A DNA stretch of 64,000 bases, from IMG/VR virus record IMGVR_UViG_3300037755_000349, positions 1-64,000 of that record; one strand, given 5' to 3'. The position numbers and the translations under genes are program-made. The number at the start of each line of letters is the position of its first letter. The first letter of the stretch is position 1. This DNA is from a virus (Duplodnaviria; Caudoviricetes). This document shows positions 3,237 through 41,500 of this stretch, one piece after another. The notes under the pieces are model-generated. The model had not been told where the DNA came from. It was given only the letters and a program-made list of their open reading frames with translations, and did not search any database.

Positions 3237-3782
3237 TCATCTGTCCCACGTCATCACGCGTATGCGTGACTTGGCTTGCGTCACGTACTTCTCGACGGTG
3301 TGAATCGACAGGCCGAGTTTTTCGGCCACCTCTTCGTAGGACATGCCATCGCGCTTGTGCGCGAGCAGTACTGCGGCATGCGTGGGCGGGAGTTGCGCCA
3401 CTGCCCTATCGATCTGCTGCTGGAGATTTAATCGATCCGCTATATCGTCCGGCACTACCTGCGAAGGATGTTCGTCCCATCCCTTCAGGACGTTGCCATC
3501 AGCATCGATCAACTCACCTCGTTGATCGCGTTTGAACCACTGGCTCTCGTGCTCGACCTCGATACGAAAGTCGCACAGCACATGCGATGCAATGCCGTAC
3601 AGATAGGCGAGTGGCTTGTGCACGACTTTCTCGTCATCCAGTCGCAGCAATCGCAGGTACACCTCCTGCGCCAAGTCATTCACATCTTGCGGTTGACGCA
3701 AGCGGCGCATCAAGTAGCGATGCAATTCGCGGCGATATCGTCCGAACATCGAAGCGGCAAATTTTCTAACCAGAGTTTCCAT
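3237..3782 (-). CDS. ECF (sigma-70 group 4) sigma factor, FecI-like
   Basis: Region 2 (DVNDLAQEVYLRLL, AYLYGIASH) and region 4 (LPPTHAAVLLAHKRDGMSYEEVAEKLGLSIHTVEKYVTQA); GAGGT RBS upstream. Confidence 0.93.
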   Translation of the reverse strand: METLVRKFAASMFGRYRRELHRYLMRRLRQPQDVNDLAQEVYLRLLRLDDEKVVHKPLAYLYGIASHVLCDFRIEVEHESQWFKRDQRGELIDADGNVLKGWDEHPSQVVPDDIADRLNLQQQIDRAVAQLPPTHAAVLLAHKRDGMSYEEVAEKLGLSIHTVEKYVTQAKSRIRVMTWDR

Positions 3783-3993
3783 GGGGGTACACCTCAAAGA
3801 GACGTTGCCTGCGAGCGTTGTAGACGGCGATCACCCCGTCCGTGTCCCGATCTATTTGTCCTCCGTTCTCGACGGCGCGCTGCGCCTGGTTTTGCCATTC
3901 ACTGCCAAGCCGCACCAGGGGAACATCGATGATCGAACCGGTGTAGACGAAGCCCTGGTAACGGCGGCGGTTATTGACTCTTAATCGGTCCAT
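3766..3993 (-). CDS. Hypothetical protein
   Basis: GGAGG RBS; overlaps the sigma start by 17 bp. Confidence 0.5.
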   Translation of the reverse strand: MDRLRVNNRRRYQGFVYTGSIIDVPLVRLGSEWQNQAQRAVENGGQIDRDTDGVIAVYNARRQRLFEVYPHGNSG

Positions 3994-4087: not shown

Positions 4088-5179
4088 TCAGGCCGCTCGC
4101 TTCACCGGCTTGGTGAGCAGCGACTGCCAGTCCTTGCTCGCCAGCTCGACGAGCAGGCCACCATCGGTTTCCAGCTTGGTGGCCATGTCGTAGTTCTCCT
4201 CGTCCTGGCTCTGACGGGTGATGGCGTTCGCCAGGCCCCACCGGCTCAGATCGCCGCCCTCGATCAGATGGCGCAGTACGCCTTCCTTCGTGGACTCGTT
4301 GTAGCTGAAGCGCGTAGCGGCGAGTTCGACCACATCCTCGATCTTGCCCTCGATCTTCTGGCCGGCGGCTTCGCGCATCGGATTGGTGATCTTCTCGAAC
4401 ACGTCCTGCTTCATCACCCCGCGCACGGTGTCCTGCACCTTGGCCCACAGCGCGGTGTCATCGAGTTCCTTCGTGCGATCGCTGAACATCTCATAGGCTT
4501 CCTCGGTCTCGCCCGAGGCGCGCTTGCCCACATGCGTGCGGCGCTGCCCGTAGTCCTGCATGATCATTCCGTTCTTGCAGGAGAGGCGGAACACCAGCGG
4601 CGCCACTTGCAGCGCGCCCGAGCCAACCTCGCTATTCGAGATCACAATGCCGGCCTGCACGACATCCCCGACGTTGGCGATGCTGGTGGAGATCTTGGGG
4701 AACACGGCCTTGATGTAGAAACGCGTGTCGGTCAACTGCGTGGACTCGATGCGCAGACCATCGTACTCACGCAGCACCGGCATCACGGCGTTCGCGAGAT
4801 CGAAATTGTCGAGGGGGCGGTACTTGTCGGAGAGCACGGCGCGCACGCGATTATCGAGGGTGCGCAGCATGCGGCGCGTGGGCTCACGATGCAGCAATTC
4901 GGTGAGCGTGTAAGCCAGCATATCGGGATGATCGGCGCGAAGGCGATGGTAGAACGTGGCCGGCACTTTGAGCAGCTCGGCGAATTGGCCGTGAGCATGA
5001 TCGTTGATTGCCATTCTCACCGGGCCTTTCGAGCTATCGAGGCGCACGGCAAGTGTCGTCGGGACGAGGGCGTCCTGGAACACGCTCACCTTGCTTGTGT
5101 CGGCGATGAAGTCGCGCTTGGAGGCGCTTTGGCGTTCTATTTCGGCGGCCATTTGCACGAGGGTAAGACCTGATTTCAT
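4088..5179 (-). CDS. DUF932-family phage/plasmid protein
   Basis: RAVLSDKYRPLDN, GIVISNSEVGSGAL, FRLSCKNGMI motifs; AGGAG RBS before ATG 5179. Confidence 0.72.
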   Translation of the reverse strand: MKSGLTLVQMAAEIERQSASKRDFIADTSKVSVFQDALVPTTLAVRLDSSKGPVRMAINDHAHGQFAELLKVPATFYHRLRADHPDMLAYTLTELLHREPTRRMLRTLDNRVRAVLSDKYRPLDNFDLANAVMPVLREYDGLRIESTQLTDTRFYIKAVFPKISTSIANVGDVVQAGIVISNSEVGSGALQVAPLVFRLSCKNGMIMQDYGQRRTHVGKRASGETEEAYEMFSDRTKELDDTALWAKVQDTVRGVMKQDVFEKITNPMREAAGQKIEGKIEDVVELAATRFSYNESTKEGVLRHLIEGGDLSRWGLANAITRQSQDEENYDMATKLETDGGLLVELASKDWQSLLTKPVKRAA

Positions 5180-5258
5180 GATTCGACTCCTGAAGTGCCC
5201 CTGAATCCGCGCAGGGTTCGCGTTTCCCGGAAAACCCGGTAACGCAATATCAACACAA

Positions 5259-5298
5259 GTTGCACCGCTGTTGCAAGGGTGTTGCATTCGATGTTGCA
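5259..5298. promoter_or_regulatory. Four phased GTTGCA boxes in a divergent promoter region
   Basis: GTTGCA at 5259, 5270, 5281, 5293 (spacing 11/11/12) in the AT-richer gap between divergent operons. Confidence 0.6.
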
Positions 5299-5333
5299 CA
5301 TGAGCCATGATGCTAGGCAAAGGAGATATCCAA

Positions 5334-11532: not shown

Positions 11533-11931
11533 TTGAAAAATCTAACAGTCAATCAGATCGACAAGCATTTAGAGTTTCTCCAGAACGAGGCGAAGCGCCT
11601 TACGTCGATGGGCCAGCGATGGGCCGACATTCGAGCAGAGCACTACACTCCGATCATCGAGATACTGCGCCAGATTCGGCAGGACAAGCAGATGCGTGGC
11701 CTGAACGATGCGCCGATCGTGGAGTATCCGCCGATCAAGAGCGCGGCCCACGCCGGTTCCGCTGGTGGGACTGGTTCTAGCGCGCGCCCCGACCAGGCCG
11801 CGCTCGATGCGGCGCCGGAGCTGGTGGGCAAGAAAGCGCTGGTGCTCTACTTCGAGACTCAGCAGGACGTGGAGGATTTCATCGACCTGTACCAGCAGGT
11901 GCATCCGAAAGTGCGGACGGTGCAGCTATGA
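11533..11931 (+). CDS. Hypothetical protein
   Basis: GGAGG RBS before TTG; ATGA-coupled stop. Confidence 0.55.
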   Translation: MKNLTVNQIDKHLEFLQNEAKRLTSMGQRWADIRAEHYTPIIEILRQIRQDKQMRGLNDAPIVEYPPIKSAAHAGSAGGTGSSARPDQAALDAAPELVGKKALVLYFETQQDVEDFIDLYQQVHPKVRTVQL

Positions 11932-12166
11932 ACGCGTGTACCTGTGGCCACGCTCCCGAGGAGCATGGCGGCGATCCAAAGCACCCCGGCTCGACCGCGT
12001 GCCAAATAGAAGGATGCGATTGCATCGCTTACGATGAGGAAGAGGGCGACGGATGGGAGGATGAGCAAGCCACACACGGCTACGGCGATGACGAGTTCCC
12101 GTTCGGCCCATAGGTTATGCACATCAACAACCAGGAGCGAACGTTAGGGCGACGGTGCAGCTATGA
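11916..12166 (+). repeat. 16-bp exact direct repeat GACGGTGCAGCTATGA
   Basis: Copies at 11916-11931 and 12151-12166 flank the 11928-12113 gene. Confidence 0.85.
11928..12113 (+). CDS. Small Zn-binding protein with acidic tail ending EFPFGP
   Basis: CTCGH..EH..CQIEGCDC followed by a D/E-rich tail. Confidence 0.6.
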   Translation: MNACTCGHAPEEHGGDPKHPGSTACQIEGCDCIAYDEEEGDGWEDEQATHGYGDDEFPFGP

Positions 12167-12186: not shown

Positions 12187-12340
12187 ATGAATGGTAACGA
12201 GACAATTGTGGACGGGCTGTTCGCCATAGCGGCGTCACTTGATGGTGTGGCGAGGGCTATTAGCAAGCTCGGGCTTGCGGAAGCATCAACGCCGATGGGC
12301 GACTCTGCAAATTTCTGAGGTCGTCAAGCACGACACATGA
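12187..12340 (+). pseudogene. Probably frameshifted small gene
   Basis: ATG 12187 frame stops at 12318, while another frame runs on to a TGA that is ATGA-coupled to 12337. Confidence 0.3.
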
Positions 12341-12609
12341 ACACCGAAGACTTCAAAGCCAGCTACCTGGAGCGCCTTATCAAGCGACTGGTCGACGACG
12401 GCGGCCAGCCCACGCCCGAGGCCGAGAGCATCGCGACCGAGCTGTACAGCCACTGCCCGCGCTTCGACATGGCGGAGGAGTACCAGCAAGATCCCGAGGC
12501 CGCGGCCGACGTTGCGTATGAGGACTGGGAGGAGGCCGACGATTTGGACGAGGATGACGAGTGGGCCGGCGACGAGGATCAGGAGGAGAACGAGTTTCCG
12601 TTCGGATAA
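12337..12609 (+). CDS. Highly acidic small protein ending EFPFG
   Basis: C-terminal half dominated by D/E. Confidence 0.6.
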   Translation: MNTEDFKASYLERLIKRLVDDGGQPTPEAESIATELYSHCPRFDMAEEYQQDPEAAADVAYEDWEEADDLDEDDEWAGDEDQEENEFPFG

Positions 12610-12773: not shown

Positions 12774-13070
12774 ATGGTTCAGCGCGAGGTCGTGTTCATC
12801 GATCGATATCGCTTGTGGAGGCTTAATGAATTGGCCGCGATCGCTTCGATCATCGACGCACGTGCTCGCTACCTCGGCGATCTCTTGGGGCCACGATCGC
12901 AGCCGTTCGATGAGTTTTTCATACACAGATCGTCGCGGGAATTAATCGGTATCGACTTCCTTGTGGAGAGCCAGACGTGCGTACTCGTGCCGGAAGGCGC
13001 GGTTTACCAGATCACCGACTTGGAAGATTTCATACAGCGTTCACGCTCGATTGCGACGAGAAGCGCATGA
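12774..13070 (+). CDS. Hypothetical protein
   Basis: GGAGG RBS; ATGA-coupled stop. Confidence 0.5.
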   Translation: MVQREVVFIDRYRLWRLNELAAIASIIDARARYLGDLLGPRSQPFDEFFIHRSSRELIGIDFLVESQTCVLVPEGAVYQITDLEDFIQRSRSIATRSA

Positions 13071-13339
13071 ACCGCCGTCAATTCCTTGCCGGCCTGGGCG
13101 CCGGCCTCGCCACGATCGCGATCACGACCAGGCTCGCCACCACGGAGCTGCTGCCGAAGAACATCACTGCGCGGTGGGATCTCGAACGCGATACAGCCAC
13201 CATCGAGATAAGCGGGACCGATCAGTATGGCAACCGGATCGAGGAGACTATTCGGGTATCGTCTGAGCAAGTGGAAAATGGCGGCGAGATCCGGATGAAG
13301 CGTTTCAAGATGATCGACACCGTGGTGGCTGGCGCATGA
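13067..13339 (+). CDS. Tat-like leader plus fragment resembling structural protein 22476-23159
   Basis: MNRRQFL leader; TATIEISGTDQYGNRIEE vs TATVTIVGTDVYGSLMTE. Confidence 0.65.
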   Translation: MNRRQFLAGLGAGLATIAITTRLATTELLPKNITARWDLERDTATIEISGTDQYGNRIEETIRVSSEQVENGGEIRMKRFKMIDTVVAGA

Positions 13340-13665
13340 ACCGTCGAGGATTCCTCGCTGCCGCCGTCTCGGCCGCGCTGGCGCCGAAGGCCCTGATCCA
13401 GCCAGGCGTGCAGGTCTTCGAGACCGTGGCCATGGCGCCGGCGATCGCTGGTGACTTCGAGATTAGTTCGCTGCGTTACGCGGCGACGGAGCGATACAGC
13501 AATGCATTGATTGCCCCGAGTGTTTTCCGCGATCAGCTCCTCGATGGGCTCAACGAAGTATTTAGAAAGGCGCATGCCGAGCACGAACCAGGTGAGTGGG
13601 AAAAGCTGTTCGCGATCGAGGCGGATCAGGAGCCGCCAACAGAGTGGGCGAAGTTATCAACATAG
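13336..13665 (+). CDS. Tat-like leader plus permuted major-capsid C- and N-terminal segments
   Basis: MNRRGFL leader; GDFEISSLRYAATERYS and FRDQLLDGLNEVF match the capsid termini. Confidence 0.7.
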   Translation: MNRRGFLAAAVSAALAPKALIQPGVQVFETVAMAPAIAGDFEISSLRYAATERYSNALIAPSVFRDQLLDGLNEVFRKAHAEHEPGEWEKLFAIEADQEPPTEWAKLST

Positions 13666-13673
13666 GGGTGCGT

Positions 13674-14096
13674 ATGAAGTTCGATCCTCAGTCCTTTCGT
13701 GAGCGAGTGGATGCGCTCTTCGATCACGCCGACAACGGCATGCCGAGCGCGTACTTCGAGATCCCCGACACGGCGAACGACTGGCAACCGATGCGCGTGC
13801 ACTATCACGTCATTGCGTTCGCGGCCGAGAGCGCGGACATCGCGGCAGCTCGCGTGTTCCAGGAAGTGCAGAAGCTGCGCGCCACCGTGCCCGGCCTGGC
13901 CTGGCTCTTCTGGCGCAACGATCCGCGCATGACTTCCGAGTTCGACACGAGCACCGAGGGGATGGCCGAGGCGCAGATCGAGGACATGGAGCCGTGCTGG
14001 TTCAGGGTGAGAGTGCGCATTGCCGTGCCGAGAGGCGACTGGACGCAGGTCGAGCACGACCAGACGGAAGCGACGCGCATCCTGCTGACGGACTGA
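13674..14096 (+). CDS. Hypothetical protein
   Basis: AGGGG RBS; TGATG-coupled to the next gene. Confidence 0.6.
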   Translation: MKFDPQSFRERVDALFDHADNGMPSAYFEIPDTANDWQPMRVHYHVIAFAAESADIAAARVFQEVQKLRATVPGLAWLFWRNDPRMTSEFDTSTEGMAEAQIEDMEPCWFRVRVRIAVPRGDWTQVEHDQTEATRILLTD

Positions 14097-14398
14097 TGTT
14101 CGCGTCGATCATCAGAGAGCGGCTCCTCGCCGGACTCAATGACGTTTTTGGCATGCAGTACAAGGCAACCGAGCGATATCAATTCGGATGGCATAGGGAC
14201 GCGTGGGCTGGTGCGCTGCCAGTACCGACCTGGGAGCATTGTCTGCTCTGCCATCGAGAGACCCCGCATCTCGGCCATTGTGTCTATACAGCTTGGCATC
14301 CAAGCGGCAATGGCATCGCCGATCGCATGGAGGCTTACGGGCTCGACATCACGAATCCCGAGCATGTGCGCGAGTTCTCGGACGCGATGAAAAACTGA
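14096..14398 (+). CDS. Chimera of capsid termini and the scaffold C-terminal motif
   Basis: GLNDVFGMQYKATERYQFGW and MEAYGLDITNPEHVREF. Confidence 0.7.
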   Translation: MFASIIRERLLAGLNDVFGMQYKATERYQFGWHRDAWAGALPVPTWEHCLLCHRETPHLGHCVYTAWHPSGNGIADRMEAYGLDITNPEHVREFSDAMKN

Positions 14399-14400
14399 GG

Positions 14401-14901
14401 ATGCATGTGATGGACTTGGCCGATGTGATGCACGTGTACACCGGTTCGAACGGCACGGCCACGCGTGACATGTATCAGAAGCTCCTCGGCTACGGCCCTC
14501 GCGGCGTGATCGCAATCAACCTGTTCCGCGCGCAGAAGTGCAGCGAGCGCGCCAAGGTGTACCGAGGAGGCGGCTATCGCAGCAGTGCCTACGAACGTAA
14601 GCAATGGTCGATGAACAACCTGGTGGACGTGCTTGTCGTGCACGCGGCCGACTGCGGCATCATGTGGGGGTGGGGCACCGACGAGAAACAGGACTTCCAC
14701 AAGGTCGTGCTGTACCTGGACCTACCCACCGGCCAGGTGAGTTTCCACGCCGCTGTCCGCGGACAAGGTCCGGACTACCCCGGACAATGGGACGGCCAGG
14801 CCGGCGCCTCCCCTGGCCGGATCTGTCGCTACGTGGCCGACGTATTCGCTACCATACCGATCGAGGACGGGCGGGGCCTGGAACTACCCTTAGCCGAATA
14901 G
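14401..14901 (+). CDS. Conserved-looking phage hypothetical protein
   Basis: AINLFRAQKCSERAKVYRG..VLYLDLPTGQVSFH. Confidence 0.65.
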   Translation: MHVMDLADVMHVYTGSNGTATRDMYQKLLGYGPRGVIAINLFRAQKCSERAKVYRGGGYRSSAYERKQWSMNNLVDVLVVHAADCGIMWGWGTDEKQDFHKVVLYLDLPTGQVSFHAAVRGQGPDYPGQWDGQAGASPGRICRYVADVFATIPIEDGRGLELPLAE

Positions 14902-15059: not shown

Positions 15060-17600
15060 ATGCCCAAGCCATACAGCTCCACGCTCGTCGAACTGTCGCC
15101 CGAGGAGCCGCGCCCCTCGATGCAGCCGGACGGCTCGCGCATCACGCGCAACGGTGACGGCACCATCACCATCGAAGGCCAGCAGCAGGCCGGTCCGCGT
15201 ATCCCTGTCGAGGGCGACTTCGACGAGAATTTGGCGCCGTACTTCACCGCCGGCGAACGGCAATTCGTCGCTGAGCAGCTCATCGAGTACTCGCGCGTGG
15301 ATATCGAGTCGCGCGCCGACTGGGAGCTGAAGGAGGAGCGCTGCCTGGAGATGCTCGGGATCAAGGACATCCCGCCAGAGCGAGATGAGTCGCCAGGCTT
15401 CCATAAGGTCACGCATCCCATGCTCGTTGAGGCGTGCGTGCAGTTCCAGGCGCGTGCGATTGCAGAGTTCTACCCGGCCACCGGCCCGGTGAAGTGCACC
15501 CCAATCGGCAAGCGCAGCCGCCGACGCATTGAGCAGGCCGATCGCGTCGAGACTTTCATGAACTACTACCTGACCGGGATCGACGCCGGTTACTTTCCGG
15601 ACACCGACCAGATGTTGCTGTACCTGCCGATGTCAGGCAGCGCATTCCGCAAGTGCTCGCCGGATTGGCGCACCGGCCTGCCGCAGCTCAGGTACGTGAA
15701 GGCCACGAATTTCATCGCGCCGTACTCGGGCTTGTCGCTGGACACAATGCCGCGCTATGCACACCGCTACACGATGAGCGGCCTGGATATTCAGCGCTCG
15801 ATCGACCGCGGCATGTTCTACGACGTGAACCTGCAACCCCCTGCGATGGGAGAGGCGCGGCACTCGCGCACGGAGGACACCGCGGATTTCCGCGAGATGG
15901 TGATGCACGAGGACGATCGGCTGTACAACATCCTCGAATATCACATCGAGATGCCGCTCTCCTCCCCCGAGCTGCCGGAGCACGAGGATGGCGCCACGCT
16001 GCCGTACATCATCCTGGTCGAGGAGACGAATCGCGAGATCCTCCTGATGCGGCGCAACTGGAAGCAGATGGATGAGCAGCGCCGTAAGCGCATTTGGTTC
16101 TCTCACTATCGGTTCTTGCCCGGCCTGGGCTTCTACGGCTTCGGCTTTCCGCACGTCATCGGCTCGCTCGGCCGCGCCGCCTCGGGCGCCGTGAACGCGC
16201 TGCTCGACTCCGCGCTGATGGCGAATCTGCAAGGCGGCTTCAAGACGAAGGAGGCGAAGAACAGCGCGAAGGAATACCGGCTTACCCCTGGCGTGTGGAC
16301 CGATGTAGACATGGCCTACGACGAGATCTCGAAGGCGTTCTACACCCCGCCTTTCCGTGAGCCGAGCCCGGCCCTGTTCCAGCTCCTCGATCGCCTGGTG
16401 GCCGCCGGCCAGCGCTTCGCCTCGACCACGGAGGTGATGGTCGGGGATGCCGACAACCGCGGCCCGGTGGGCACGACGGTGGCGCTGATCGAGGAAAGCT
16501 CGCGCGTCTATACCGCGATCCACAAGCGCATGCACAACAGCGCGGGCGAAGAGTTCCGCATGCTCTCCGAGTACATCGGGGAGTACATGCCCAACGAGTA
16601 CACCTACGACTTCGACGACCAGACGCGCACGCTGCTGCAAACCGACTTCGATGGCCGCGTCGACGTGGCGCCAGTGTCGGATCCGAACATCTTCAGCTCG
16701 ACACAGCGTATCGCGCTCGCGCAGGCCGTAATCGAGTTGCAGATGCAACGCCCCGAACTGTATCCACCACAGAAAGTGATCGCCGCGCACCGGCGCCTGC
16801 TGGAAGCGCTGCGCGTGCCAGATCTCGATGAGGTGGCGCCCGAGATGGACATGCCGAAGTTCATCGACGCGGTGAGCGAGAACGGTTTGATGCTGGTCGG
16901 CAAGGGCACGCGTGCATTCGAGTATCAGGATCACCAGTCGCACATGCTGATCCACCAGAACGGTTTGCAATGGGCGATGGCCGCGAACCAGGAACCCGAG
17001 CAGCAGCAGCAGATCGCCGCGGCGTTCATGGCCCACATCCGCGAGCACCAGGCGCTGCACTATCGCTCGATGATCCAGCAGCAGCTCGGCATGCCGTTGC
17101 CGCCGCTGGATGAGGCCGGCATGCCGCAGGAAGTCGATCCGGAGTTCGAGGCCCGGTTGAGCCAGGCCGTCGTGCAGGCGCTGCCGCCCCCGCCCCTGCC
17201 TCCGGGCCAGGAACAGCAGGCCGCGGAAGGCCAGGCCGTGCTCGACAAGACGCAGGCCGCGATCAAGGCGAAGGAGATGGATGCCACCGCCAAGGTCGAG
17301 CGCGACACGATGGCGTTCGTCGGGGAGGAGAAGCGCAAGGAGGTGGCGTTCCAGAACGACCAGCGCCGGCAAAATGTGAATCTTGCGTTCGATCTGTCGC
17401 GCCAGTCCAAAGGCGCGAACCTCCAGGATCGCATCAAGGATCGCCAGGCATCCGCAGACCTGATCCGCACCGGCGTGAAGGGTAAACTGGCGCAGCGGCA
17501 GACCGAAGCGCAGGGTAAGCTGAAGATGAACCTGGCCGCCGAGCAAGCCAAGGCGAAGGCCAAGACGGTGAAAAAGAAAGCCAATGGAGCGTCACGTTGA
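15060..17600 (+). CDS. Portal protein (P22-like) with long C-terminal extension
   Basis: 846 aa; HPMLVEACVQFQARAIAE, GFYGFGF, GTTVALIE..AIHKRMH, VSDPNIFS motifs; first gene of the head operon. Confidence 0.88.
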   Translation: MPKPYSSTLVELSPEEPRPSMQPDGSRITRNGDGTITIEGQQQAGPRIPVEGDFDENLAPYFTAGERQFVAEQLIEYSRVDIESRADWELKEERCLEMLGIKDIPPERDESPGFHKVTHPMLVEACVQFQARAIAEFYPATGPVKCTPIGKRSRRRIEQADRVETFMNYYLTGIDAGYFPDTDQMLLYLPMSGSAFRKCSPDWRTGLPQLRYVKATNFIAPYSGLSLDTMPRYAHRYTMSGLDIQRSIDRGMFYDVNLQPPAMGEARHSRTEDTADFREMVMHEDDRLYNILEYHIEMPLSSPELPEHEDGATLPYIILVEETNREILLMRRNWKQMDEQRRKRIWFSHYRFLPGLGFYGFGFPHVIGSLGRAASGAVNALLDSALMANLQGGFKTKEAKNSAKEYRLTPGVWTDVDMAYDEISKAFYTPPFREPSPALFQLLDRLVAAGQRFASTTEVMVGDADNRGPVGTTVALIEESSRVYTAIHKRMHNSAGEEFRMLSEYIGEYMPNEYTYDFDDQTRTLLQTDFDGRVDVAPVSDPNIFSSTQRIALAQAVIELQMQRPELYPPQKVIAAHRRLLEALRVPDLDEVAPEMDMPKFIDAVSENGLMLVGKGTRAFEYQDHQSHMLIHQNGLQWAMAANQEPEQQQQIAAAFMAHIREHQALHYRSMIQQQLGMPLPPLDEAGMPQEVDPEFEARLSQAVVQALPPPPLPPGQEQQAAEGQAVLDKTQAAIKAKEMDATAKVERDTMAFVGEEKRKEVAFQNDQRRQNVNLAFDLSRQSKGANLQDRIKDRQASADLIRTGVKGKLAQRQTEAQGKLKMNLAAEQAKAKAKTVKKKANGASR

Positions 17601-18121: not shown

Positions 18122-18330
18122 CGGACAACTCGGCGCCCTTCGCGAACCGCGTGCTGAAGTGGGCGGGTGAAGAGCGCCTCGTCCTCATCGAGCACCTGGC
18201 GAAGGGTCTGGCCGAGCGCGAGTACTTGCTGACCTGCGGGCGCATCAAGCAGCTCGATGAGACCATCGCTCACCTGGAGGAGCTGTACCGCAAATACATC
18301 CAAGACGACGAGGAAGATGACGATGAGTAG
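18118..18330 (+). CDS. Small helical head-module protein (start uncertain: CTG 18118 or ATG 17830)
   Basis: EYLLTCGRIKQLDETIAHL resembles the small gene often found before phage GroES; acidic tail. Confidence 0.45.
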   Translation: MTDNSAPFANRVLKWAGEERLVLIEHLAKGLAEREYLLTCGRIKQLDETIAHLEELYRKYIQDDEEDDDE

Positions 18331-18877
18331 ACGAAACAAGGGCCGCGTATTTTCTTTGCCGCCCGTGATCTCGCGACCTGGCCCCTCGATGGGAGACGCG
18401 CACCGCGATCTGCACGATGCCGATCGCCACGTCGATCGCCGGCATGACACGGATGAAAACATCGAGCGATTGATCCGCGAGGCCGACAAGCAGGCCGCGC
18501 TTGAGCCGGTCGATGTGACGAACCTGCCGATGCAGCCGATGTTCTGGCACGTACTGGTCGAGCCGATGCGCGCCTCTGCGAAGATCGGCAGCGGCGTGCT
18601 GTACCAGGCCGATGAGAGCAAGCGAGTCGAGGAGATCCAGACGACAATCGGGCGCCTGGTGGCGATCGGACCTTGCGCGTTTACCGGCAAAACGAATGCC
18701 GGAAACTTCCTCGGCGAAGGGATCGAGCGCGAGAAGTTGATCAACAGATGGGTGATGTACGCCAAGCACACCGGCCAAGAGATCAAGCTGCGCACCGGCC
18801 ACCGATTGCTGCTGCTCAACGACTCCGAGCTGCTCGCATTCGTGGAAAATCCCGAGGATTTCCGGCACTGGCTTTGA
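18323..18877 (+). CDS. groES: GroES/Cpn10-like co-chaperonin
   Basis: PMFWHVLVEP..GSGVLY..GRLVAIGP..WVMYAKHTG..LLLLNDSELLAFVENP. Confidence 0.8.
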   Translation: MSRRNKGRVFSLPPVISRPGPSMGDAHRDLHDADRHVDRRHDTDENIERLIREADKQAALEPVDVTNLPMQPMFWHVLVEPMRASAKIGSGVLYQADESKRVEEIQTTIGRLVAIGPCAFTGKTNAGNFLGEGIEREKLINRWVMYAKHTGQEIKLRTGHRLLLLNDSELLAFVENPEDFRHWL

Positions 18878-19057
18878 TCGAGTTGGGCGTAGGTACGGCC
18901 AAAGAAAGCCGTACTTACGTCGTTCTTATGGGGTTCTTATTGGATAAAAATCCCATAGTTACCCTCACTGATATCAGCCGCGGAGATTAGAAAAGCCTCC
19001 CCTCGTTGCGGAAGATCCTCGCCGCACGTCGTGCAACACACGACAACGAGGAGCAAC

Positions 19058-20200
19058 ATGGCTCGCACACAAACCACTGGCGGCAAGGCAAAGGGGGGCA
19101 AGCAATGGAAGCCGGCCCCGACCGACCAGGAGAAACCTTTCGCTGAGATCGATCTCGGAGCGTCGAAGGACGGCATTCAGCGCATGGCTGACGAGCCCGA
19201 CGAGGATGCCGACGATGATCTGCCTGGTTCCGAAGGCGATGACGGTGAGCAGCCACGTGAGCGGCGCTTCATAGATCGTAGCAAGTCCGTGAGCAAGCGC
19301 CTCGGGCGCATGGAACGCAGCTTCAACCAGCGATTTGCGGATCAGGAAGCTCGATGGCAGCGCCAAGTCGCCGATCTCAAGCGCGAGAACAGTTCGCTAC
19401 GCGTCAATCGCGGGGTAAGCGAAGCCGACCAGGCCGCGCATGACAGCAAGATCGCGGCCTGGCAATCCGAACTCGAAACCGCCTACGAGAAGGGCGACAC
19501 CAAGAAACAAGCCGAGCTGACCACGAAGATTGCTCAGGCACAGGGTGAGTTCGAGTCGAAGAAGCGCGCTGCCATGCTCGGCCAGCAGCAGCACCAGGAC
19601 CGTGACGATCGACGCGATGCCGTCGACCAGCGCGGTGATCCCGACAACCGCGGCAACGGACCGACGCGCGAGGCGCGCAAGTGGATGCGTGCGAATGATG
19701 ACTGGTGGAACGATCCGGAGTTCGAGATCGAGAAGCAGGCCGCCATCGTCATCGACAACCAACTCATCGACGAAGGCTCCGATCCCAACGATCCGGAGCA
19801 CTACGAAGAGCTGCGCGAGCGCCTGCTCGACAAGTTCCCGGACATGGAATCGGAGATTGCGATGCCTAGCGCACGCCGTGGCCGCCGCGATGCGCGCCGC
19901 GATGACGATGAAGACGATGACCTCGACGATGACCGTGGCGATCGCCGCGATCGTCGCGACACGCGTGGCGCCCGCAACGGCAGCACGCGCCGCCCGCCCA
20001 TCCCGGCCTTCGCCGATCGAGGCGCAGATCGAGGTAATCAACCGCGGCGCTCCAACGGTCGCACTGTCACCCTCTCGCGCGCGCAGCGCGAGAACATGAT
20101 CACTTTCGGACTCGATCCGCAGAATGACGATCATGTGAAGGAGTACGCGAAGTCCGCCGAAGAAACGACGCGCGCCTACGCGCGTGAGGGTCGTCACTGA
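19058..20200 (+). CDS. Capsid scaffolding protein
   Basis: Charged coiled-coil; WMRANDDWW..DP..EHYEEL; position between portal and capsid. Confidence 0.7.
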   Translation: MARTQTTGGKAKGGKQWKPAPTDQEKPFAEIDLGASKDGIQRMADEPDEDADDDLPGSEGDDGEQPRERRFIDRSKSVSKRLGRMERSFNQRFADQEARWQRQVADLKRENSSLRVNRGVSEADQAAHDSKIAAWQSELETAYEKGDTKKQAELTTKIAQAQGEFESKKRAAMLGQQQHQDRDDRRDAVDQRGDPDNRGNGPTREARKWMRANDDWWNDPEFEIEKQAAIVIDNQLIDEGSDPNDPEHYEELRERLLDKFPDMESEIAMPSARRGRRDARRDDDEDDDLDDDRGDRRDRRDTRGARNGSTRRPPIPAFADRGADRGNQPRRSNGRTVTLSRAQRENMITFGLDPQNDDHVKEYAKSAEETTRAYAREGRH

Positions 20201-21454: not shown

Positions 21455-22360
21455 ATGATGACGCGTAGTGATTTCCGGAAGCAGCTTCAGGAGGGCCTGA
21501 ATGCTGTTTTCGGTGTTGAGTACAAGCGCCACCCAGAGGAGTGGCGTGCGATCTTCGACGTGGAGAATTCGTCGAAGGCGTTCGAAGAAGACGTGATGGA
21601 AGTGGGCCTGGGTGCCGCTCCCGTCAAGGCCGAGGGTGCCGCGATCGAGTACGACGAAGGGTACGAGACCTACGTCGCGCGCTACCGGCACGACACGATC
21701 GCGCTGGCCTTTGCGATCACCGAGGAAGCTGAAGAGGACAACCTCTACGGCAGCGTCGGCAACCGCATGAGCCGTGCGCTGGCTCGTTCCCTGCAACACA
21801 CCAAGGAAGTGAAGGGCGCGAACATTCTGAACTTCGGATTCGACACCAATTTCCCCGGTGGCGACGGAGTTCCGTTGTTCTCGGCCTCGCATCCGCTTGG
21901 TGGCGGGGGCGTGCTGTCCAACACGTTGGCGACGCCTGCCGATCTGGCCGAAAGCTCGATGGAAGAGCTGATGAACCAGATCAGCGAGTGGACGGACGAT
22001 CGCGGCCTGCCGATGAAGGCCATGATCACGAAGCTCATCATCCCGGTGGAGTTGCAATTCATTGCCGCTCGCCTGTTGATGAGCCCGTACCAGCCGGACA
22101 CGGGCGACAACAACATCAACGCGATCCAGAAACTCGGTGCGATCAGGGACGGCTATGCCGTCAATCACTACCTGACCGATCCCGACGCCTGGTTCTTCAA
22201 GACCGACACTCAGGACGGCTTGAAGCACTTCGTGCGGCGCGCTGTGAAGCGCGGCCTGGAGGGCGACTTCGAGACGGGCAACATGCGCTACAAGGCCAGC
22301 GAGCGGTATTCGCAGGGCTGGTCGAACTGGCGCGGTGCTGCCGGATCTGCGGGGGCCTGA
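21455..22360 (+). CDS. Major capsid protein
   Basis: GGAG RBS; QLQEGLNAVFG, KAEGAAIEYD, DGVPLFSASHP, YLTDPDAWF, RYKASERYS motifs. Confidence 0.88.
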   Translation: MMTRSDFRKQLQEGLNAVFGVEYKRHPEEWRAIFDVENSSKAFEEDVMEVGLGAAPVKAEGAAIEYDEGYETYVARYRHDTIALAFAITEEAEEDNLYGSVGNRMSRALARSLQHTKEVKGANILNFGFDTNFPGGDGVPLFSASHPLGGGGVLSNTLATPADLAESSMEELMNQISEWTDDRGLPMKAMITKLIIPVELQFIAARLLMSPYQPDTGDNNINAIQKLGAIRDGYAVNHYLTDPDAWFFKTDTQDGLKHFVRRAVKRGLEGDFETGNMRYKASERYSQGWSNWRGAAGSAGA

Positions 22361-22475: not shown

Positions 22476-23159
22476 ATGTCGCGTCAACTTCTGTCTCGGG
22501 CTACTGATCTTTTCCTCGGCGCCGTCGCCTACGCTCGCGCGTTCTCGGGCAAGTACGGTGCTCCTTTCTCACCCCTCGTCGTCCACAACTTCGGCGCTCC
22601 GATCATCGGGGATGCCGATGGCATCAGTGTGTCGGCGACGATCACCGCACCGGCCTCGGCCGTCATCGGTGGCGCGCTCGCCTCCGGTGGTGTCGCGACG
22701 TTCGACGTGCCGCGCAATGTCGTGGGCGCCTGGACGAACACGGCCACGGTCACGATCGTGGGCACCGATGTGTACGGCTCGCTGATGACCGAGGTCTCGG
22801 CCAGCGGGACCTCGCACACCGGAACCAAGGCGTTCAAGACGGTCACGTCTGTCACGCCGAGCGTCACGGTCACGGGCGCAACATTCGGTACGGGTGACGT
22901 ACTCGGACTGCCCTACCGCGTGGACAAGAACAAACTCATTGCAGCCCGCGCAGGGAACGCGATCGACGCTGGTGTATTCGTGCCGGCGGTGACGACCGAT
23001 CCGGCAACCGGGACCACTGGCGATGTGCGCGGCACGTTCAATCCGGCGGTGACGTTGGACGGCGTCGAGACAATCTCGGTGGTTTTCGAGATCGCGGATC
23101 GCTCTTCCAAAGTCGGGACCTACGGCGTCAAGCAATTCGGTAGCGCCGATAGCGTCTAA
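22476..23159 (+). CDS. Virion structural protein (decoration-like); paralog of 23260-23922
   Basis: Thr/Val/Gly-rich beta protein; DADGIS..PRNV..GTDVYG. Confidence 0.6.
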   Translation: MSRQLLSRATDLFLGAVAYARAFSGKYGAPFSPLVVHNFGAPIIGDADGISVSATITAPASAVIGGALASGGVATFDVPRNVVGAWTNTATVTIVGTDVYGSLMTEVSASGTSHTGTKAFKTVTSVTPSVTVTGATFGTGDVLGLPYRVDKNKLIAARAGNAIDAGVFVPAVTTDPATGTTGDVRGTFNPAVTLDGVETISVVFEIADRSSKVGTYGVKQFGSADSV

Positions 23160-23259: not shown

Positions 23260-23922
23260 ATGCGAGTACTCGAACGAATCGCGACGGTGATCACTGCCGA
23301 TCCGGACGGCATCGCCGCGTCGCAAACGCCCGCGGGAGCCGGGGACCTGGTGCTCGATGGCGCGACCGTGAAGGCCGACGACGGCACGGCCACCTACGAC
23401 ATCGGCGCCGCGGTGCTCAATCCGCCGCGTCGAGTGACCATCACCTCCGCTGCCGACATCTCCAACCGCACGCTCACGATCTACGGACGCGATCGCGTGG
23501 GCACCGAGATCTCCGAGACCCTCACCGGGCCGAACGCAACGACTGTCACCAGCGTACTGGTCTACAAGACGGTGAGCCGCATCTCGATCTCAGGGGCCGC
23601 GGCCGGCGCGCTCACGGTGGGCTTCGGCGCCGAGTTCATCACGCCGTGGATCGTGCTTGCGAACATGCGGGGTGATTATCACTGGCTCTCGCGGGTGTTC
23701 TTCGCTGCCGGTGGCACGGTGAACTACGACATCGAGGTGACGAGCGACAAGTACCTGCTGCAACGCTCGGGGGATTACTCCGATGACACCCACGCAGTGC
23801 TTGCCGCGCAGACGGCAAACACCGAGAGCAGCAACGATGCCAACTACGCAGCGGTGCGGCTCAAGGTGAATGCGACCGATGTGCCCGTGACGATGCGCGT
23901 CATTCCCTCTCGAACGGCATAA
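23260..23922 (+). CDS. Virion structural protein; paralog of 22476-23159
   Basis: AGGAGG RBS; ADPDGIA..PRRV..GRDRVGTEISE. Confidence 0.65.
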   Translation: MRVLERIATVITADPDGIAASQTPAGAGDLVLDGATVKADDGTATYDIGAAVLNPPRRVTITSAADISNRTLTIYGRDRVGTEISETLTGPNATTVTSVLVYKTVSRISISGAAAGALTVGFGAEFITPWIVLANMRGDYHWLSRVFFAAGGTVNYDIEVTSDKYLLQRSGDYSDDTHAVLAAQTANTESSNDANYAAVRLKVNATDVPVTMRVIPSRTA

Positions 23923-34950: not shown

Positions 34951-35535
34951 GTGACCCCCTATTCCTTCATCCAGGACGATTTCCTAGAGCAGTTCGAAGC
35001 GCTGCGCCGCTATGCCGATCGAGCAGTGTTCGCTGATGTGAGCAACCCGGCGGACAACGTGGTGTATCCGCACATCTGCGCGGAGATCCCGCAGAACATC
35101 CAGCACGAAATCGAGTTCCAGATCGCGGCCACGATGGGCGCCCCGCCGACGATCACGTACCTGTTCATGCGAATGTCGCCCGAGGGCGCGCCGGTGCCGC
35201 ACGAGGCGCACACCGACCTGCTGATGGGACAATGGTCGATGATGCTGTACCTCAATCGCGAGTTTCACTGCAAAGGCGGCACCTCGCTGCTGCGCCACCG
35301 CGCCACCGGCCTGTCGGTCCATCCGCGCAATGATGCGGAGCTGGCGGTGTGGAACCGCGATCACAACAACCGCAGCGCGTGGGAGACGGACCTGTTGGTC
35401 AAGATGGTGGCCAATCGGGCTTTCATCTTCCCGGCCTACCTCATGCACCGCGCCGAACCAATCGGCGGCTTCGGCAAAGCGCAGCAGGATTCGCGCATGG
35501 TCCTGACAGCTTTCTTTAACCTCCCGAAGTCATGA
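34951..35535 (+). CDS. 2OG-Fe(II) oxygenase-like protein
   Basis: AHTD (HxD)..MMLYLN..GGTS..NRAFIFPAYLMH..R.VLTAF. Confidence 0.75.
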   Translation: MTPYSFIQDDFLEQFEALRRYADRAVFADVSNPADNVVYPHICAEIPQNIQHEIEFQIAATMGAPPTITYLFMRMSPEGAPVPHEAHTDLLMGQWSMMLYLNREFHCKGGTSLLRHRATGLSVHPRNDAELAVWNRDHNNRSAWETDLLVKMVANRAFIFPAYLMHRAEPIGGFGKAQQDSRMVLTAFFNLPKS

Positions 35536-37121: not shown

Positions 37122-38540
37122 ATGCTGCAACAACCACAGAATTCCTCGATGCAGGAGTACATGGCGCAGTACGGTGAGCGCTTGAACGCGCTACTTGGTT
37201 ACGCGCCGCAACCATCGAATCTCGGTGCTGCGCAGTCCGGCGAGAGTCCAATGGTGGACGAGATGGGCGCCGCGCCAGCGTCGCCAGGCATGAATCTCGG
37301 CGCCGAACAGGCACAGCCGATGATGCAGCAACAGCCCGCGGCAGCTCCGGCCGCGCCGAGTGCTGCGCCGGCGCCGACTACTCCGCCCATGCAGAAGAAC
37401 GAGAAGGGCCAGGTGGTGATCGAGTCGCGCCCCAAGGACTTCGACTTCGGTGTGAAGGATGACGATCTCAAGGATGTGAAGAGCGTCGGGGACCTGGTGC
37501 AGAAACTGCCCGAGGAGAAGGCGAACGCATACATGGATTGGTGGGAAGAGCGCTACGGGCAGGTCAATGGCAAGTACGACGCGATGCTGGCGGAGCTTGG
37601 CCAGCGTCCCGATCCTAAGTCTCGCGATCTATCGCGCAAGGACAAATTCACGCTGCTGATGGAGTTCGGCCTCAATTTGATGAAGCACTCTCAGCAGGGC
37701 GGCGATCGAACTGGCGCAATGGGAGCCGCTCTGCACGATACCGTGCGAGGTGATCAAGCACGCCGGGAGAAGGACTTCGAGCGGCATCGGAGTCTGAGTG
37801 GCGAAATCGAAGGGCGGCGGCAGCAAGACCTCAAGGCGATCGGCACGCGCGGAGATGCGATGGTCGCGTCGCAAAACCTTGGCGCTGCCGCTGCCAAAGA
37901 AGGCCGCGAAGCGACCGAGTTCGCCGAGCGCGACGAGGAAGTCAAGAACATCGTCTATGGCGATGAGGGTGTCGTCGGTGTTACTCGCAAGGGTGAGGGG
38001 CGTACCGTCACCGATGAGACCGGCCGCGCCGTCAGATCCACACTCGGCATTGCTCGCGGATCTCGCGGTAGTGGCCGCGGTGCTGGCGGCTATGCGCCGC
38101 ATAACATTGAGAAGCTCGCGACTTTTTACTCCAAGACCTACGACATCCCGATCGAGGTTGCCACCAACATCGCGCGCTCGGAAAAGAACGCGACCGATCC
38201 GTTCAAGATGTATTCGACCATCTTGAACGGACAGCTTCGGCAATACATGCCGGCCGACGAGGCGGCGAGGGTAGCGAAGGAGTTGGTCGAGGGTGCGTTC
38301 GGTGAGGGCGCGCTCGACAGCAAGCCAGGTGCGCCGATCGAGCGACCAGGTGGCGGCGGCAACCTCGGCGCCGCGGAGCCCGCCGCCGCGCCTGCACCTG
38401 GTTCGAGTCTCGGCAGCTCCGCTCCGCCGGCAAATCTGCTCAAGTCGGGCAAGGTGACCACGATCCGAAACAAGCGCACTGGCGCAGAGGAGAAGTGGAC
38501 GCTCGATGAGACCGGACAGCCCAAGCGAGTACTACGCTGA
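37122..38540 (+). CDS. Internal virion/ejection protein
   Basis: Pro/Ala/Gln-rich ends with a helical core; position between pilot and giant protein. Confidence 0.55.
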   Translation: MLQQPQNSSMQEYMAQYGERLNALLGYAPQPSNLGAAQSGESPMVDEMGAAPASPGMNLGAEQAQPMMQQQPAAAPAAPSAAPAPTTPPMQKNEKGQVVIESRPKDFDFGVKDDDLKDVKSVGDLVQKLPEEKANAYMDWWEERYGQVNGKYDAMLAELGQRPDPKSRDLSRKDKFTLLMEFGLNLMKHSQQGGDRTGAMGAALHDTVRGDQARREKDFERHRSLSGEIEGRRQQDLKAIGTRGDAMVASQNLGAAAAKEGREATEFAERDEEVKNIVYGDEGVVGVTRKGEGRTVTDETGRAVRSTLGIARGSRGSGRGAGGYAPHNIEKLATFYSKTYDIPIEVATNIARSEKNATDPFKMYSTILNGQLRQYMPADEAARVAKELVEGAFGEGALDSKPGAPIERPGGGGNLGAAEPAAAPAPGSSLGSSAPPANLLKSGKVTTIRNKRTGAEEKWTLDETGQPKRVLR

Positions 38541-38541
38541 C

Positions 38542-41500
38542 ATGGCAACGAACGAATGGGAGGTCATCGGCGAAGAGCCGGATGTACTGCAACCTGCAAC
38601 ACAACCGACTGTAGCGCCGCAGAATGTGTTGCAGGGTGCAGTACAAAATGATTGGGAGGTTCTAGGCGAGGAGGACCTCACGCCCGATGCACTGCTGCCT
38701 GGCGAGGCGTTGAATCTCGCGACAGCGCCCGATGAGCAGTTCGGTCTCGATGAGACACAGCGGAGCATGGCGAGTGCACTCACGCGCGCCGGCGCCGATC
38801 AAATCATCGACGATGTGGCGAGCCGGGAAATCTTGGCTGCACCGCCGCCGGCGCCTGGCCGTATCGAGCCCACCGCGCTCACGGCAACGCGCAGATTTCT
38901 CCCTGGCGGCAAGCAGATAGCCGAGCCCGTCGATCCGGACGTCGACCTGCGCGCGATGAAGCGCCTGCCGGGAAATATTGGCCGCAGCTCGAAGGCTCAG
39001 GTGAAGGAAGCGATCGCCGGCACACAGCGCCTGTTCGCCGACTTGCAGGCCAACATGGACATCGCGAAAGCGGAATCGTATCGCTCGTACCAGAGCGACG
39101 ATCCGCAAGTGCTGGCACAGCAGCAGGCCGCGGCCGGTGAAGCCGAGGAGCGCGCCGGCCACGCGGAACTTGCGCAGGGTCGAGCTGCTCGCACGACGCG
39201 ACGCGCGCAGGCCGAGGGGCAGGCCGCAATCCCCGCCGACGCCGGCGAGATCGAGCGAGCGATCCAAAGTGGCGTATCGAGCGCGGCGGTGACACTGCCG
39301 ATCGTGACGCTTGGCTCCGTGGTGCCTGGTGGCCAGGGTGCTGCGCTGGTAACGCTCGGTGGCATGACGGGCAGCGCACGCTACGGCGAGCTGCGCGCCG
39401 CGGGGCTCGATGAGGGTACGGCGGCGTTGAGCGCAGCAGCGCTCGGTGGCCTCGAAGGGCTCACCGAGAAAATCCCGTTGGGCACGCTGGCTAAGAAGTC
39501 GCCCTTTATCGAGAAGGCCACCGAGTTCCTGGTGCAGGACCTGCTCGGCGAGAACGTGTCCACCGTGGCGCAGATCGCGGACGACTACCGCCTGGGCCTG
39601 CGCGATGACGTGACGATGGCCGACGTGCAGCAAGCCATCAAGGAGACGAGCGCGGCGACGATCGCCGGCTCCGCCGCGCAGCTCACCGTGTCAGGCATCT
39701 TCGAACAGGCCCTCAACCGGGCGAACCAGAAGGCAATCGACCGCGAGGCCAAGGCGGGCATGCAGCGCCAGGAGCCGTTCATCTCCGAACCCGACCTGGC
39801 GGGCATCGGCGAGCTGGAGTACGAGGCGGCGCCGGCTGCTGCCGCGGGCGATCTGGAGGTAGTGGCCGAGGAACCCCTGGCGGCTGCCCCTGGCAGCGCT
39901 CAAGACGAGCTGGCCGCGCTGGAGGCCCTACGCAAGGGCGGAGCCACGCCCGAGCAGGAAGCGATCCTGGAGGGCCTGGGCCACCTGGTGCGAACCGAGA
40001 CCGGGACGCCAGTACTACTGCCATCGGGACGGCGTAGACTTACGGAGCTGAATCAACAGCTTGCGGATAGTCGCAGTGAAACAAAAAACCAGGCTCTCCC
40101 TCAGCCCGTTGCAGCAGGTGCTAAAGAAGCACCTGGATCGGCTCAACCCGGATTGGGCGAAGCGGCCGGGACCACACCGTCGCTCACAGAAGCAACTCAG
40201 GGAGCAGCGCGCGGCGTCCGTGTTGGTCGATCGCCGGCGCCTGGTGGTGAACGACAAGGTGAAAGTGTTGCTGCTGGAGAAGCCAACCTCGAAGACACGA
40301 TCCCAATCCCGCAGCAATACGAGCGGGTGATCCTGGAGTCGATCATCAAGGACGACGCGACGCCGGGGCAGATTGGTATCGCGATATCCCGAGGGTTTGC
40401 AAAGCGCCGCTCCGATGGCACCGCGACGCTGTTGCCGGCGGGCCGGCGGCGGCTGGTCGAACTGGAGTCAGGCCAGCCGCCGGCCGACGTTGAGGCGACG
40501 TTTGAGGGCGAGGAGCTGCGCCGAGCTGGCGATCTTCGCCGCACGCCGCGAGTGGAGGTTAAGCCGGCACAGGCGCGCAGCGGCAGCGTTCAGACGCCGC
40601 GTGGCGGCTTCACTGTGCACGTCGATGGCAAGCCGGTCGTCGAGCTTCCCGATGCGCAAGCCGCGCGCGAGGCCGCGGCCGGATTTGCGGCTGACGGGAC
40701 TTTTAAGACCACCGTCGCCGGGCAACCCGTGTCGGTCGACGTGACGCCTACGGACGCGCAGAAGGCGTCCGGCACCTATACCAAGGGTCACATTCGCTAC
40801 GAGGGTCTCCAGATCTCGATCGAAAATCCCAAAGGCTCTATTCGCTCTGGCGTGTCGGAAAGTGGGAGAAAGTGGAGCCGTGCGCTTGGAGCTGATTACG
40901 GGTACGTGCGCGGTTCCGAATCTGCTGACGGCGATCATGTCGATGTCTTCCTCGGTGATGCGACCAGCGACGTTGCGTACATCGTCGATCAGGTGAAAGC
41001 GGATGGCACTTTCGACGAGCACAAGGTGATGCTCGGCTACCCATCGCTTGAGGCTGCGACCGCAGCGTATCGAGCACAGTACCCAAAGGGATGGAAGGGA
41101 CTCGGTGCGATAACCCACATACCGATCGCGGACTTCAAAACGTGGGTGAAGTCTCCACAAGCGAAGCAACCCTACGCATGGAAACCTAAAGCGCAAGCTG
41201 TCGCCGCGGTTCCCTCGGCCGAACCAGCGCCTGAGCGCGCGAAGCTGCACAAGAAGATCTATCGCGGCACCGAGGCCGGCACGAAAGGAGCCGAAACGCG
41301 CGCTGCACCGCGAGGTGAATTGGGGCCGGGCATCTACTTCACGCCGGATGCAAAGCTCGCCGCGAGTTACGGCGGTGGCCCCACGGCGAGTATCGCGAAG
41401 GGCACTCGCGTGGTGCACACCGCGGAGCTGGCGCGCGATCTGAAGGCCGAGGAGATTGGCACACTCGAAGGCGGATCTCGCGACGGGGAGACTGCGCGCC

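Follow-up and report, generated by a model that had tools for sequence, protein, structure and literature searches.

Four consecutive small open reading frames (ORFs), designated A to D, form a cassette at positions 13067-14398 of a 64,000-nucleotide stretch of phage DNA (hereafter, the window). The window comprises the first 64 kb of IMG/VR record IMGVR_UViG_3300037755_000349, the complete 72,067-bp genome, with direct terminal repeats, of an uncultured phage from a sediment metagenome. Our analysis confirmed that three of the four genes (A, B and D) carry real copies of short head-protein pieces. The cassette is best described as a lineage-specific operon of real, fast-evolving small genes. 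A, B and D appear to be ancient composites of short segments taken from paralogous copies of head genes: the initial helices of the N-arm of the major capsid protein (MCP), the C-terminal hairpin of its P-domain, the C-terminal helix-loop-helix of the presumed scaffold, and a beta domain encoded behind the capsid gene. We regard these points as established or nearly so, and the function of the cassette as a matter of graded likelihood.

The cassette sits just upstream of the portal and head genes, on the same strand. The MCP (21455-22360, + strand; 301 amino acids, aa) has the HK97 fold: it matches the Pfam family Phage_capsid_4 (E 1.1e-11), and the Foldseek matches to its AlphaFold2 (AF2) model are HK97-fold capsids, including an encapsulin with bound targeting peptide. 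The scaffold role of the charged 389-aa product of 19031-20200 (+) is presumed from its position and composition. Pfam and PHROG searches gave no family match for this protein, and its C-terminal motif is kept in 17 distinct relatives. Directly after the MCP gene lies o22476 (22476-23159, +; 227 aa), followed by o23260 (23260-23922, +; 220 aa), a second paralogue of the o22476 domain (domain hidden Markov model (HMM), E 1.8e-16). A domain of approximately 76 residues with the core TI.GTD..G....E is common to o22476, o23260 and A. A preliminary description of the window had called o22476 capsid-associated, a label that has only the position after the MCP gene behind it; no family or solved structure names the protein: a search of the ESM Atlas with o22476 yielded no informative family, and a PDB sequence search with the MCP and o22476 returned no relevant match.

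Each of the three head-derived genes has its own composition. ORF A (13067-13339, +; 90 aa) joins a twin-arginine leader (residues 1-28) to a beta-type domain of approximately 60 aa. In ORF B (13336-13665, +; 109 aa), a twin-arginine-like leader is followed by a segment resembling the C-terminal hairpin of the MCP (21-55), an N-arm-like segment (61-95) and an acidic tail. ORF D (14096-14398, +; 100 aa) begins with an N-arm-like helix (1-20) and continues through a strand resembling the MCP C terminus (21-40), a CxxC...H...C knuckle (49-62) and a helix-loop-helix resembling the scaffold C terminus (67-97). For ORF C (13674-14096, +; 140 aa), which in relatives usually lies near the portal gene, likeness to head proteins was not found.

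Smith-Waterman scores were compared with those of 200 shuffles and expressed as z. Against o22476 and o23260, A reached z of 9.5 and 3.9, respectively; B reached 10.4 against the MCP; D reached 7.6 against the MCP and 5.5 against the scaffold; and B and D matched each other at 7.5. C had no match to head proteins in the same comparison. The aligned segments pair B 21-55 with MCP 252-286, B 61-95 with MCP 4-37, D 1-23 with MCP 2-24, D 21-34 with MCP 278-291, and D 75-95 with scaffold 353-373. When all 1360 stop-to-stop ORFs were compared with one another, A with o22476 and B with the MCP were the best pairs apart from the terminal repeat. The MCP itself shows a weak self-likeness, in that its N-arm (7-24) and residues 259-280 both present R, GL, F and YK in order; because of this common pattern, the start of D also aligns, less well, to the MCP C-terminal region.

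The same pieces were recovered by profile HMMs built from relatives' proteins with the phage's own genome excluded, for which the next-best matches fell at E 0.5-6. Orthologues of the cassette genes on two metagenomic contigs, L109 and L112 (described below), were scored alongside. The scaffold C-terminus profile (15 relatives; noise from E 6) matched D at E 6.5e-6 and L109-D at 3.3e-9. The MCP N-arm profile matched B (1.2e-5), D (9.5e-5) and L109-B (7.5e-7), and the MCP C-terminus profile matched B (8.2e-6), D (5.8e-5), L109-D (1.2e-6) and L112-D (9.9e-6). The o22476/o23260 domain HMM found A at E 2.5e-5 over 53 of 76 positions and L109-A weakly (E 0.07). With z of 5.5-10.4 and profiles from outside the phage matching well above noise, the head-protein segments that the preliminary description had reported are real, and their alignments are significant against shuffled controls. 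B and D align to MCP 4-37 and 252-295 only, and the full HK97 fold, with N-arm, E-loop, spine helix, A-domain and P-domain, was not found in them. A Pfam search with B and D gave no match, and Pfam, PHROG and NCBIfam scans of A to D gave nothing beyond the leader. An AF2 model of D shows a helix-loop-helix in the tail and a helix at the N terminus, at low confidence (pLDDT 49).

The captures are not recent. Compared with the head genes, the fragments have nucleotide identities of 0.65 at first, 0.62 at second and 0.45 at third codon positions, which implies that the pieces are old or came from a diverged relative; the values also uphold the earlier remark that the copies have diverged at the DNA level and are not fresh duplications. 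The D mosaic is common to three phages whose synonymous sites are saturated. At the join of the N-arm-like and C-terminus-like pieces of D lies TACAAG (Tyr-Lys), a hexamer present at both MCP sites, which we read from the sequence as a recombination footprint. The N-arm-like piece of D is closer to that of B than to that of the MCP, and was therefore probably copied within the cassette.

Orthologues place these ORFs among genuine genes. A search with B returned one homologue, P0003, on L109, an 8.5-kb contig from the Joint Genome Institute (JGI) whose portal is 82% identical to that of the window (15060-17600). All four ORFs have orthologues on L109, upstream of the portal gene; the order there is C, then two small genes, then B, A and D, and the identities are 41% for C, 44% for B, 51% for A and 58% for D (the last by BLAST; 55% in the alignment). 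On L112, whose portal is 79% identical, C is followed by a 75-aa D orthologue adjoining the portal gene (46% by BLAST, 47% in the alignment). The source metagenomes of the L109 and L112 lineages are JGI 3300066521, 3300078620 and 3300063061. The intact frames and coupled starts reported earlier were confirmed in both coordinates and starts. The start of A overlaps the upstream ORF by ATGA and that of B overlaps A likewise; C has its own AGGGG-type ribosome-binding site; the start of D overlaps C as TGATG; and the gene after D begins at 14401, with its GAGG overlapping the D stop. No promoter-like or terminator-like site was found inside the cassette.

Selection was gauged by rough Nei-Gojobori ratios of non-synonymous to synonymous change (dN/dS), with synonymous sites near saturation. 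They gave 0.28 for B and 0.25-0.27 for D, beside 0.18-0.21 for the portal gene, and dN of the cassette genes is approximately three times that of the portal gene. Values for A (0.75) and C (0.4-0.9) were set aside as uninformative, because a G+C content at third codon positions (GC3) of approximately 0.9 compresses the proportion of synonymous differences. The preliminary description had named insignificant alignments or neutral dN/dS as grounds for giving up the idea; as the alignments are significant and the ratios of B and D, at 0.25-0.28, are not neutral, neither ground applies. Taken with the orthologues and the coupling, the ratios of B and D identify A to D as genuine genes.

Conservation between orthologues is concentrated in discrete motifs. 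Identical residues make up 22/28 of the A leader and 19/23 of the B leader, 6/37 of the middle of B and 16/35 of its N-arm-like part, and, relative to L109-D, 15/26 of the D knuckle and 22/31 of its scaffold-like tail. The R..L..GLN.VF face is kept in all three N-arm-like copies, and the D tail, which contains FGLD..NPEH, fits the scaffold family consensus. These patterns indicate that selection acts on the head-derived motifs.

We give almost no credence to the idea that the cassette is non-functional debris, remnants of head genes in decay, with open frames that are a chance effect of GC-rich DNA. Such decay would suit the low GC3 of D (0.66) and of the second part of B (residues 36-109; 0.63), next to 0.86 for C; long spurious ORFs are also common in this 61% GC genome, and the family is very rare, D forming three clusters among 5.8 billion proteins. 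However, it is largely refuted by the retention of orthologues in three phages whose synonymous sites are saturated, at dN/dS of 0.25-0.28. All pieces lie in one frame with coupled starts, conservation is focused on discrete motifs, and GC3 in the L109 orthologues is that of ordinary genes (0.82-0.91 overall; 0.82-0.87 for A, B and D).

The cassette is known from three lineages only, all uncultured. C is its most widely conserved member. A search of 1.84 billion representative proteins with C found eight further matches, six of them small relatives (136-229 aa; E 2.4e-32 to 2e-6) and two odd long multi-stretch proteins, and more distant relatives retain C only, near the portal gene or inside the head module. 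The C family includes members at L115:10001-10690 and on the contig of P0011. In P0010 (229 aa), a CxxC-type domain precedes it in a fusion, and in another case the gene lies between an RyR-domain gene and the portal gene, with a gene of the Acb2/Tad1-hairpin family just after the portal gene. An ESM Atlas search with C gave no informative family. A single-sequence search with D found D alone although an orthologue was present in that collection, so singleton answers of this kind are unreliable. Neither orthologues nor secondary copies of the MCP termini turned up in IMG/VR at 80 loci surrounding related MCP genes or in five complete relatives, and IMG/VR scans that used alignments of D and of C, or a degenerate DNA pattern specific to D, gave no match. 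The D pattern and a scan for portals likewise gave no match among JGI metagenome contigs. A phage GenBank collection contained no DNA match, and B and D matched only relatives' MCP genes there, and weakly.

Across 1.18 Mb from 86 related sources, secondary copies of head motifs are confined to the L109/L112 lineage, with one unrelated exception. This is a 64-codon open frame at 35144-35335 (-) of another complete relative, G003 (the record of L025, IMGVR_UViG_3300005826_000069), which resembles MCP 71-127 (a strand and the spine helix; E 2.7e-8) and lies approximately 20 kb from the MCP gene of that phage. Judged by its sequence, it is an independent capsid-fragment ORF.

The set of captured pieces varies among orthologues. 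L109-B is without the piece resembling the MCP C terminus. It contains an 11-residue stretch with 10/11 identities to MCP 137-147, although the profile match (E 0.26) is not significant. The N-arm-like start is absent from L109-D and L112-D, and the scaffold-like tail from L112-D. Nor is the resemblance specific to the phage's own proteins: its MCP ranks third of 80 relatives as a match to the mimic pieces, the identities fall mostly at family-invariant positions, and the tail of L109-D is closer to this phage's scaffold than is the tail of its own D. Co-variation with the cognate capsid, put forward as a check in the preliminary description, was not borne out: no preference for the phage's own protein appeared beyond rank 3 of 80, in a comparison limited by the ending of the L109 and L112 contigs before the scaffold and MCP genes.

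What do the retained pieces do? The reading we tentatively place first, while giving it somewhat less than even odds, is motif mimicry aimed at the phage's own procapsid. The retained pieces would be interaction motifs, and the proteins would present them to the procapsid machinery of the phage itself. The two sources of the B pieces, the P-domain hairpin and the N-arm, are neighbours in the HK97 fold. B and the N terminus of D in this genome could offer an N-arm-like helix as a pseudo-partner for scaffold-type tails. D, in turn, would occupy the MCP site at which the scaffold tail binds, and, once docked, may ride into procapsids as cargo, or compete with the scaffold and tune it. In phage 80alpha, the C-terminal helix of the scaffold binds the N-arm helix of the capsid protein, and CpmB of the satellite SaPI1 has a tail homologous to that of the scaffold and binds the same capsid site (PMC5644958). 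From similarity we infer binding by analogy with such cases. The position of the cassette, directly upstream of the portal and head genes on the same strand and with no terminator, is counted in favour of motif mimicry.

Several observations weigh against it. The leaders are the best-conserved parts of A and B, with A exceeding the cut-off of a leader model (below), and export would remove both proteins from the cytoplasm, where heads assemble. The scaffold identity of 19031-20200 and the binding of its tail to the N-arm are drawn by analogy from other systems. The AF2 models are weak (pLDDT 59 for the MCP and 49 for D), with only secondary structure usable. D and the second part of B have low GC3; pieces are missing from some B and D orthologues, so not every piece is essential; and, within the limited comparison above, no co-variation ties the mimic pieces to the head proteins of the same phage.

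The leaders deserve closer description. A, B and both L109 orthologues begin M-N-R-R-x-F-L, which was counted as a match to the twin-arginine motif (S/T)-R-R-x-F-L expected near the N terminus, and in A and B the leader reads MNRRxFLA followed by a hydrophobic, Ala/Gly-rich stretch. With the NCBIfam model TIGR01409 (cut-off 16.7), A (18.4) and L109-A (19.5) scored above and L109-B (14.5) below the cut-off, and B of this genome was not reported at E <= 1; with Pfam PF10518 (cut-off 22.7), A (18.8), L109-A (18.8) and L109-B (16.0) all scored below. By eye, A has a possible A-T-I-A cleavage site; candidate sites in B have Pro at +1 or -3, and its hydrophobic core is short. Of the earlier proposal of two twin-arginine-like leaders, the motif stands in both A and B; the profiles disagree on A, which is above the cut-off of TIGR01409 and below that of PF10518, and B reaches neither cut-off. 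As the leaders are strongly conserved, some of the cassette's activity probably takes place at the inner membrane or outside it. Judged by their sequences, the leaders of A and B point to export, away from head assembly, in conflict with procapsid mimicry.

A possible but doubtful explanation, which the leaders support, is that the head fragments were only raw material, exapted without mimicry for a present function unrelated to head proteins. A and B would then be periplasmic or envelope proteins exported by twin-arginine translocation (Tat), acting for example in superinfection exclusion or envelope remodelling, and D a small zinc-knuckle protein. Exaptation gains from the leaders being the most conserved segments, from the preservation of the B leader protein despite saturated third codon positions (9/23 identical), from the TIGR01409 scores of A and L109-A, and from the small membrane proteins that adjoin the cassette in L109 and in the window. 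The lack of fine-scale co-variation with the phage's own head proteins and the differing sets of MCP-like pieces among orthologues also suit it, and the spine-helix ORF of G003 suggests that fragment capture may be a general by-product in this group. Outside the leaders, however, it is the head-derived motifs that are kept, in the D tail and the N-arm-like part of B as opposed to the middle of B, and the retained residues are the ones that do not vary within the head-protein families. Moreover, D has no leader, and that of B, with no good signal-peptidase site and a short hydrophobic core, falls below the HMM cut-offs.

Comparison with described systems bears on procapsid mimicry, D being closest to SaPI1 CpmB. 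Both are small proteins with a C-terminal tail homologous to that of a scaffold, L112-D being without the tail. CpmB is satellite-encoded, whereas D is encoded in a complete 72-kb phage between the terminase and portal genes; D adds MCP-derived pieces and the Cys/His knuckle, and the two have no sequence relationship. The comparison draws on the sequence of D, dimerisation, size redirection and binding being features of CpmB. Cargo-loading peptides are short and terminal, and attach a passenger protein to the inner face of an HK97-fold shell or to its scaffold; by analogy with encapsulin cargo peptides and the targeting sequence of T4 internal proteins, the D tail could likewise dock a passenger. 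The T4 signal differs in being N-terminal and cleaved by the prohead protease, and has no sequence similarity to D.

Extra MCP-derived genes occur elsewhere as MCP paralogues, such as the T4 vertex protein gp24 and the capsid homologues of capsid-forming phage-inducible chromosomal islands. These keep the whole HK97 fold and build shells, whereas B and D retain at most approximately 70 MCP-like residues, whose order is permuted or broken by deletions, and are incapable of this fold. Beginning with MNRRxFLA and a hydrophobic stretch, the A and B leaders resemble bacterial Tat signal peptides, but they are phage-encoded, placed on head-derived sequence and, unusually, far better conserved than the mature parts. 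Short MCP regions are reportedly recognised by other proteins, as with the Gol peptide of T4 gp23 and Lit, or the sensing of the MCP by CapRel; those regions lie within the full MCP and are sensed by host proteins, with no separate phage mini-protein. The preliminary description had held that no described system has this architecture. A narrow literature search found no described phage mini-proteins built from N-arm, C-terminal and scaffold-tail pieces, but the copying of a scaffold tail is known from SaPI1 CpmB (PMC5644958).

The same precedent can be turned outwards. Mini-proteins of this kind might poison or redirect the heads of co-infecting related phages or of head-hijacking satellites, or, in a variant, exported A and B might trap capsid-interior partners of superinfecting relatives, such as ejection proteins, in the periplasm. 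We think such interference unlikely. In its favour, the mimic pieces resemble the family consensus and the phage's own proteins about equally, as would suit a broad target range, and the fast evolution of the cassette (dN approximately threefold that of the portal gene) fits conflict genes. Satellites are known with capsid-redirecting proteins that copy scaffold tails (PMC5644958). For this uncultured lineage, however, no satellite or competitor is known, and a mimic so close to the consensus should interfere with the phage's own assembly too.

One idea of the preliminary description, that the proteins are decoys or inhibitors of host defences that sense capsid proteins, we consider very unlikely. 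The MCP-derived motifs are real and conserved, the genes evolve rapidly, and the Acb2/Tad1-hairpin gene near the portal gene of a distant relative indicates that counter-defence genes can sit in this region. Yet no result links the cassette to capsid-sensing immunity and no sensor is known. The Pfam, PHROG and NCBIfam scans gave A to D no match beyond the leader, with no search aimed at PADLOC or anti-defence families. A fragment resembling the trigger should activate a sensor, not silence it, as the Gol peptide reportedly does with Lit. The A and B leaders suggest a destination outside the cytoplasm, which argues against a cytoplasmic decoy role for these two proteins, and the place of the cassette beside head genes suggests late, not early, expression.

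A broader version of action on others, that the phage carries a heritable toolkit of head-motif mimics that do not serve its own assembly, also seems rather improbable to us. In one form, Tat-exported capsid-interior mimics (A and B) would sequester, in the periplasm, the ejection proteins of superinfecting relatives; in another, cytoplasmic D would blind a capsid-sensing defence or disarm capsid-hijacking satellites. If true, such a toolkit would constitute a new class of conflict proteins built from self-derived short motifs.

The wider genome setting is as follows. A run of small genes of approximately 12 kb lies between the large terminase gene (912-2609) and the head module, and the genes at 3237-3797 (-) and 4088-5320 (-), between the terminase gene and the small-gene region, encode an extracytoplasmic function (ECF)-type sigma factor and a DUF932 protein. 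Two very acidic small ORFs at 11928-12113 and 12337-12609 (+), the only two such genome-wide, end in EFPFG(P) after an Asp/Glu run, an ending that we take to recall the acidic C-terminal tail of bacterial SSB, which ends in Pro-Phe; they may be further short-motif mimics in the accessory region. Between D and the portal gene, 14401-14901 (+) encodes a 166-aa protein (GC3 0.80) with no family match and no counterpart in L109 or L112. The head module contains a GroES/Cpn10-like gene (18257-18877, +; Pfam E 0.007), which recalls T4 gp31; relatives L115 and L109 have clear Cpn10 matches. A single ORF of 3922 codons at 38506-50274 (+) probably encodes a giant virion or ejection protein. By MCP, the nearest cultured relatives (51-57% identity) are Pag-Yong1, DSL-LC04, CRP-901/902 and HTVC023P. 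A search of sequencing runs matched one DNA run, probably the source sample, and listed no RNA run.

For the biology of these phages, the cassette shows a route of accessory-gene birth in which short interaction motifs of structural genes are captured, permuted and long kept under selection. If D docks on the MCP through its copied scaffold tail, a trick described for satellites, as in SaPI1 CpmB, would also exist inside phage genomes, where it would serve self-regulation or cargo loading. The N-arm mimic in B, if true, would be the reciprocal trick, of which we have met no description. There is no obvious reason why capsid-derived sequence should be joined to strongly conserved twin-arginine leaders.

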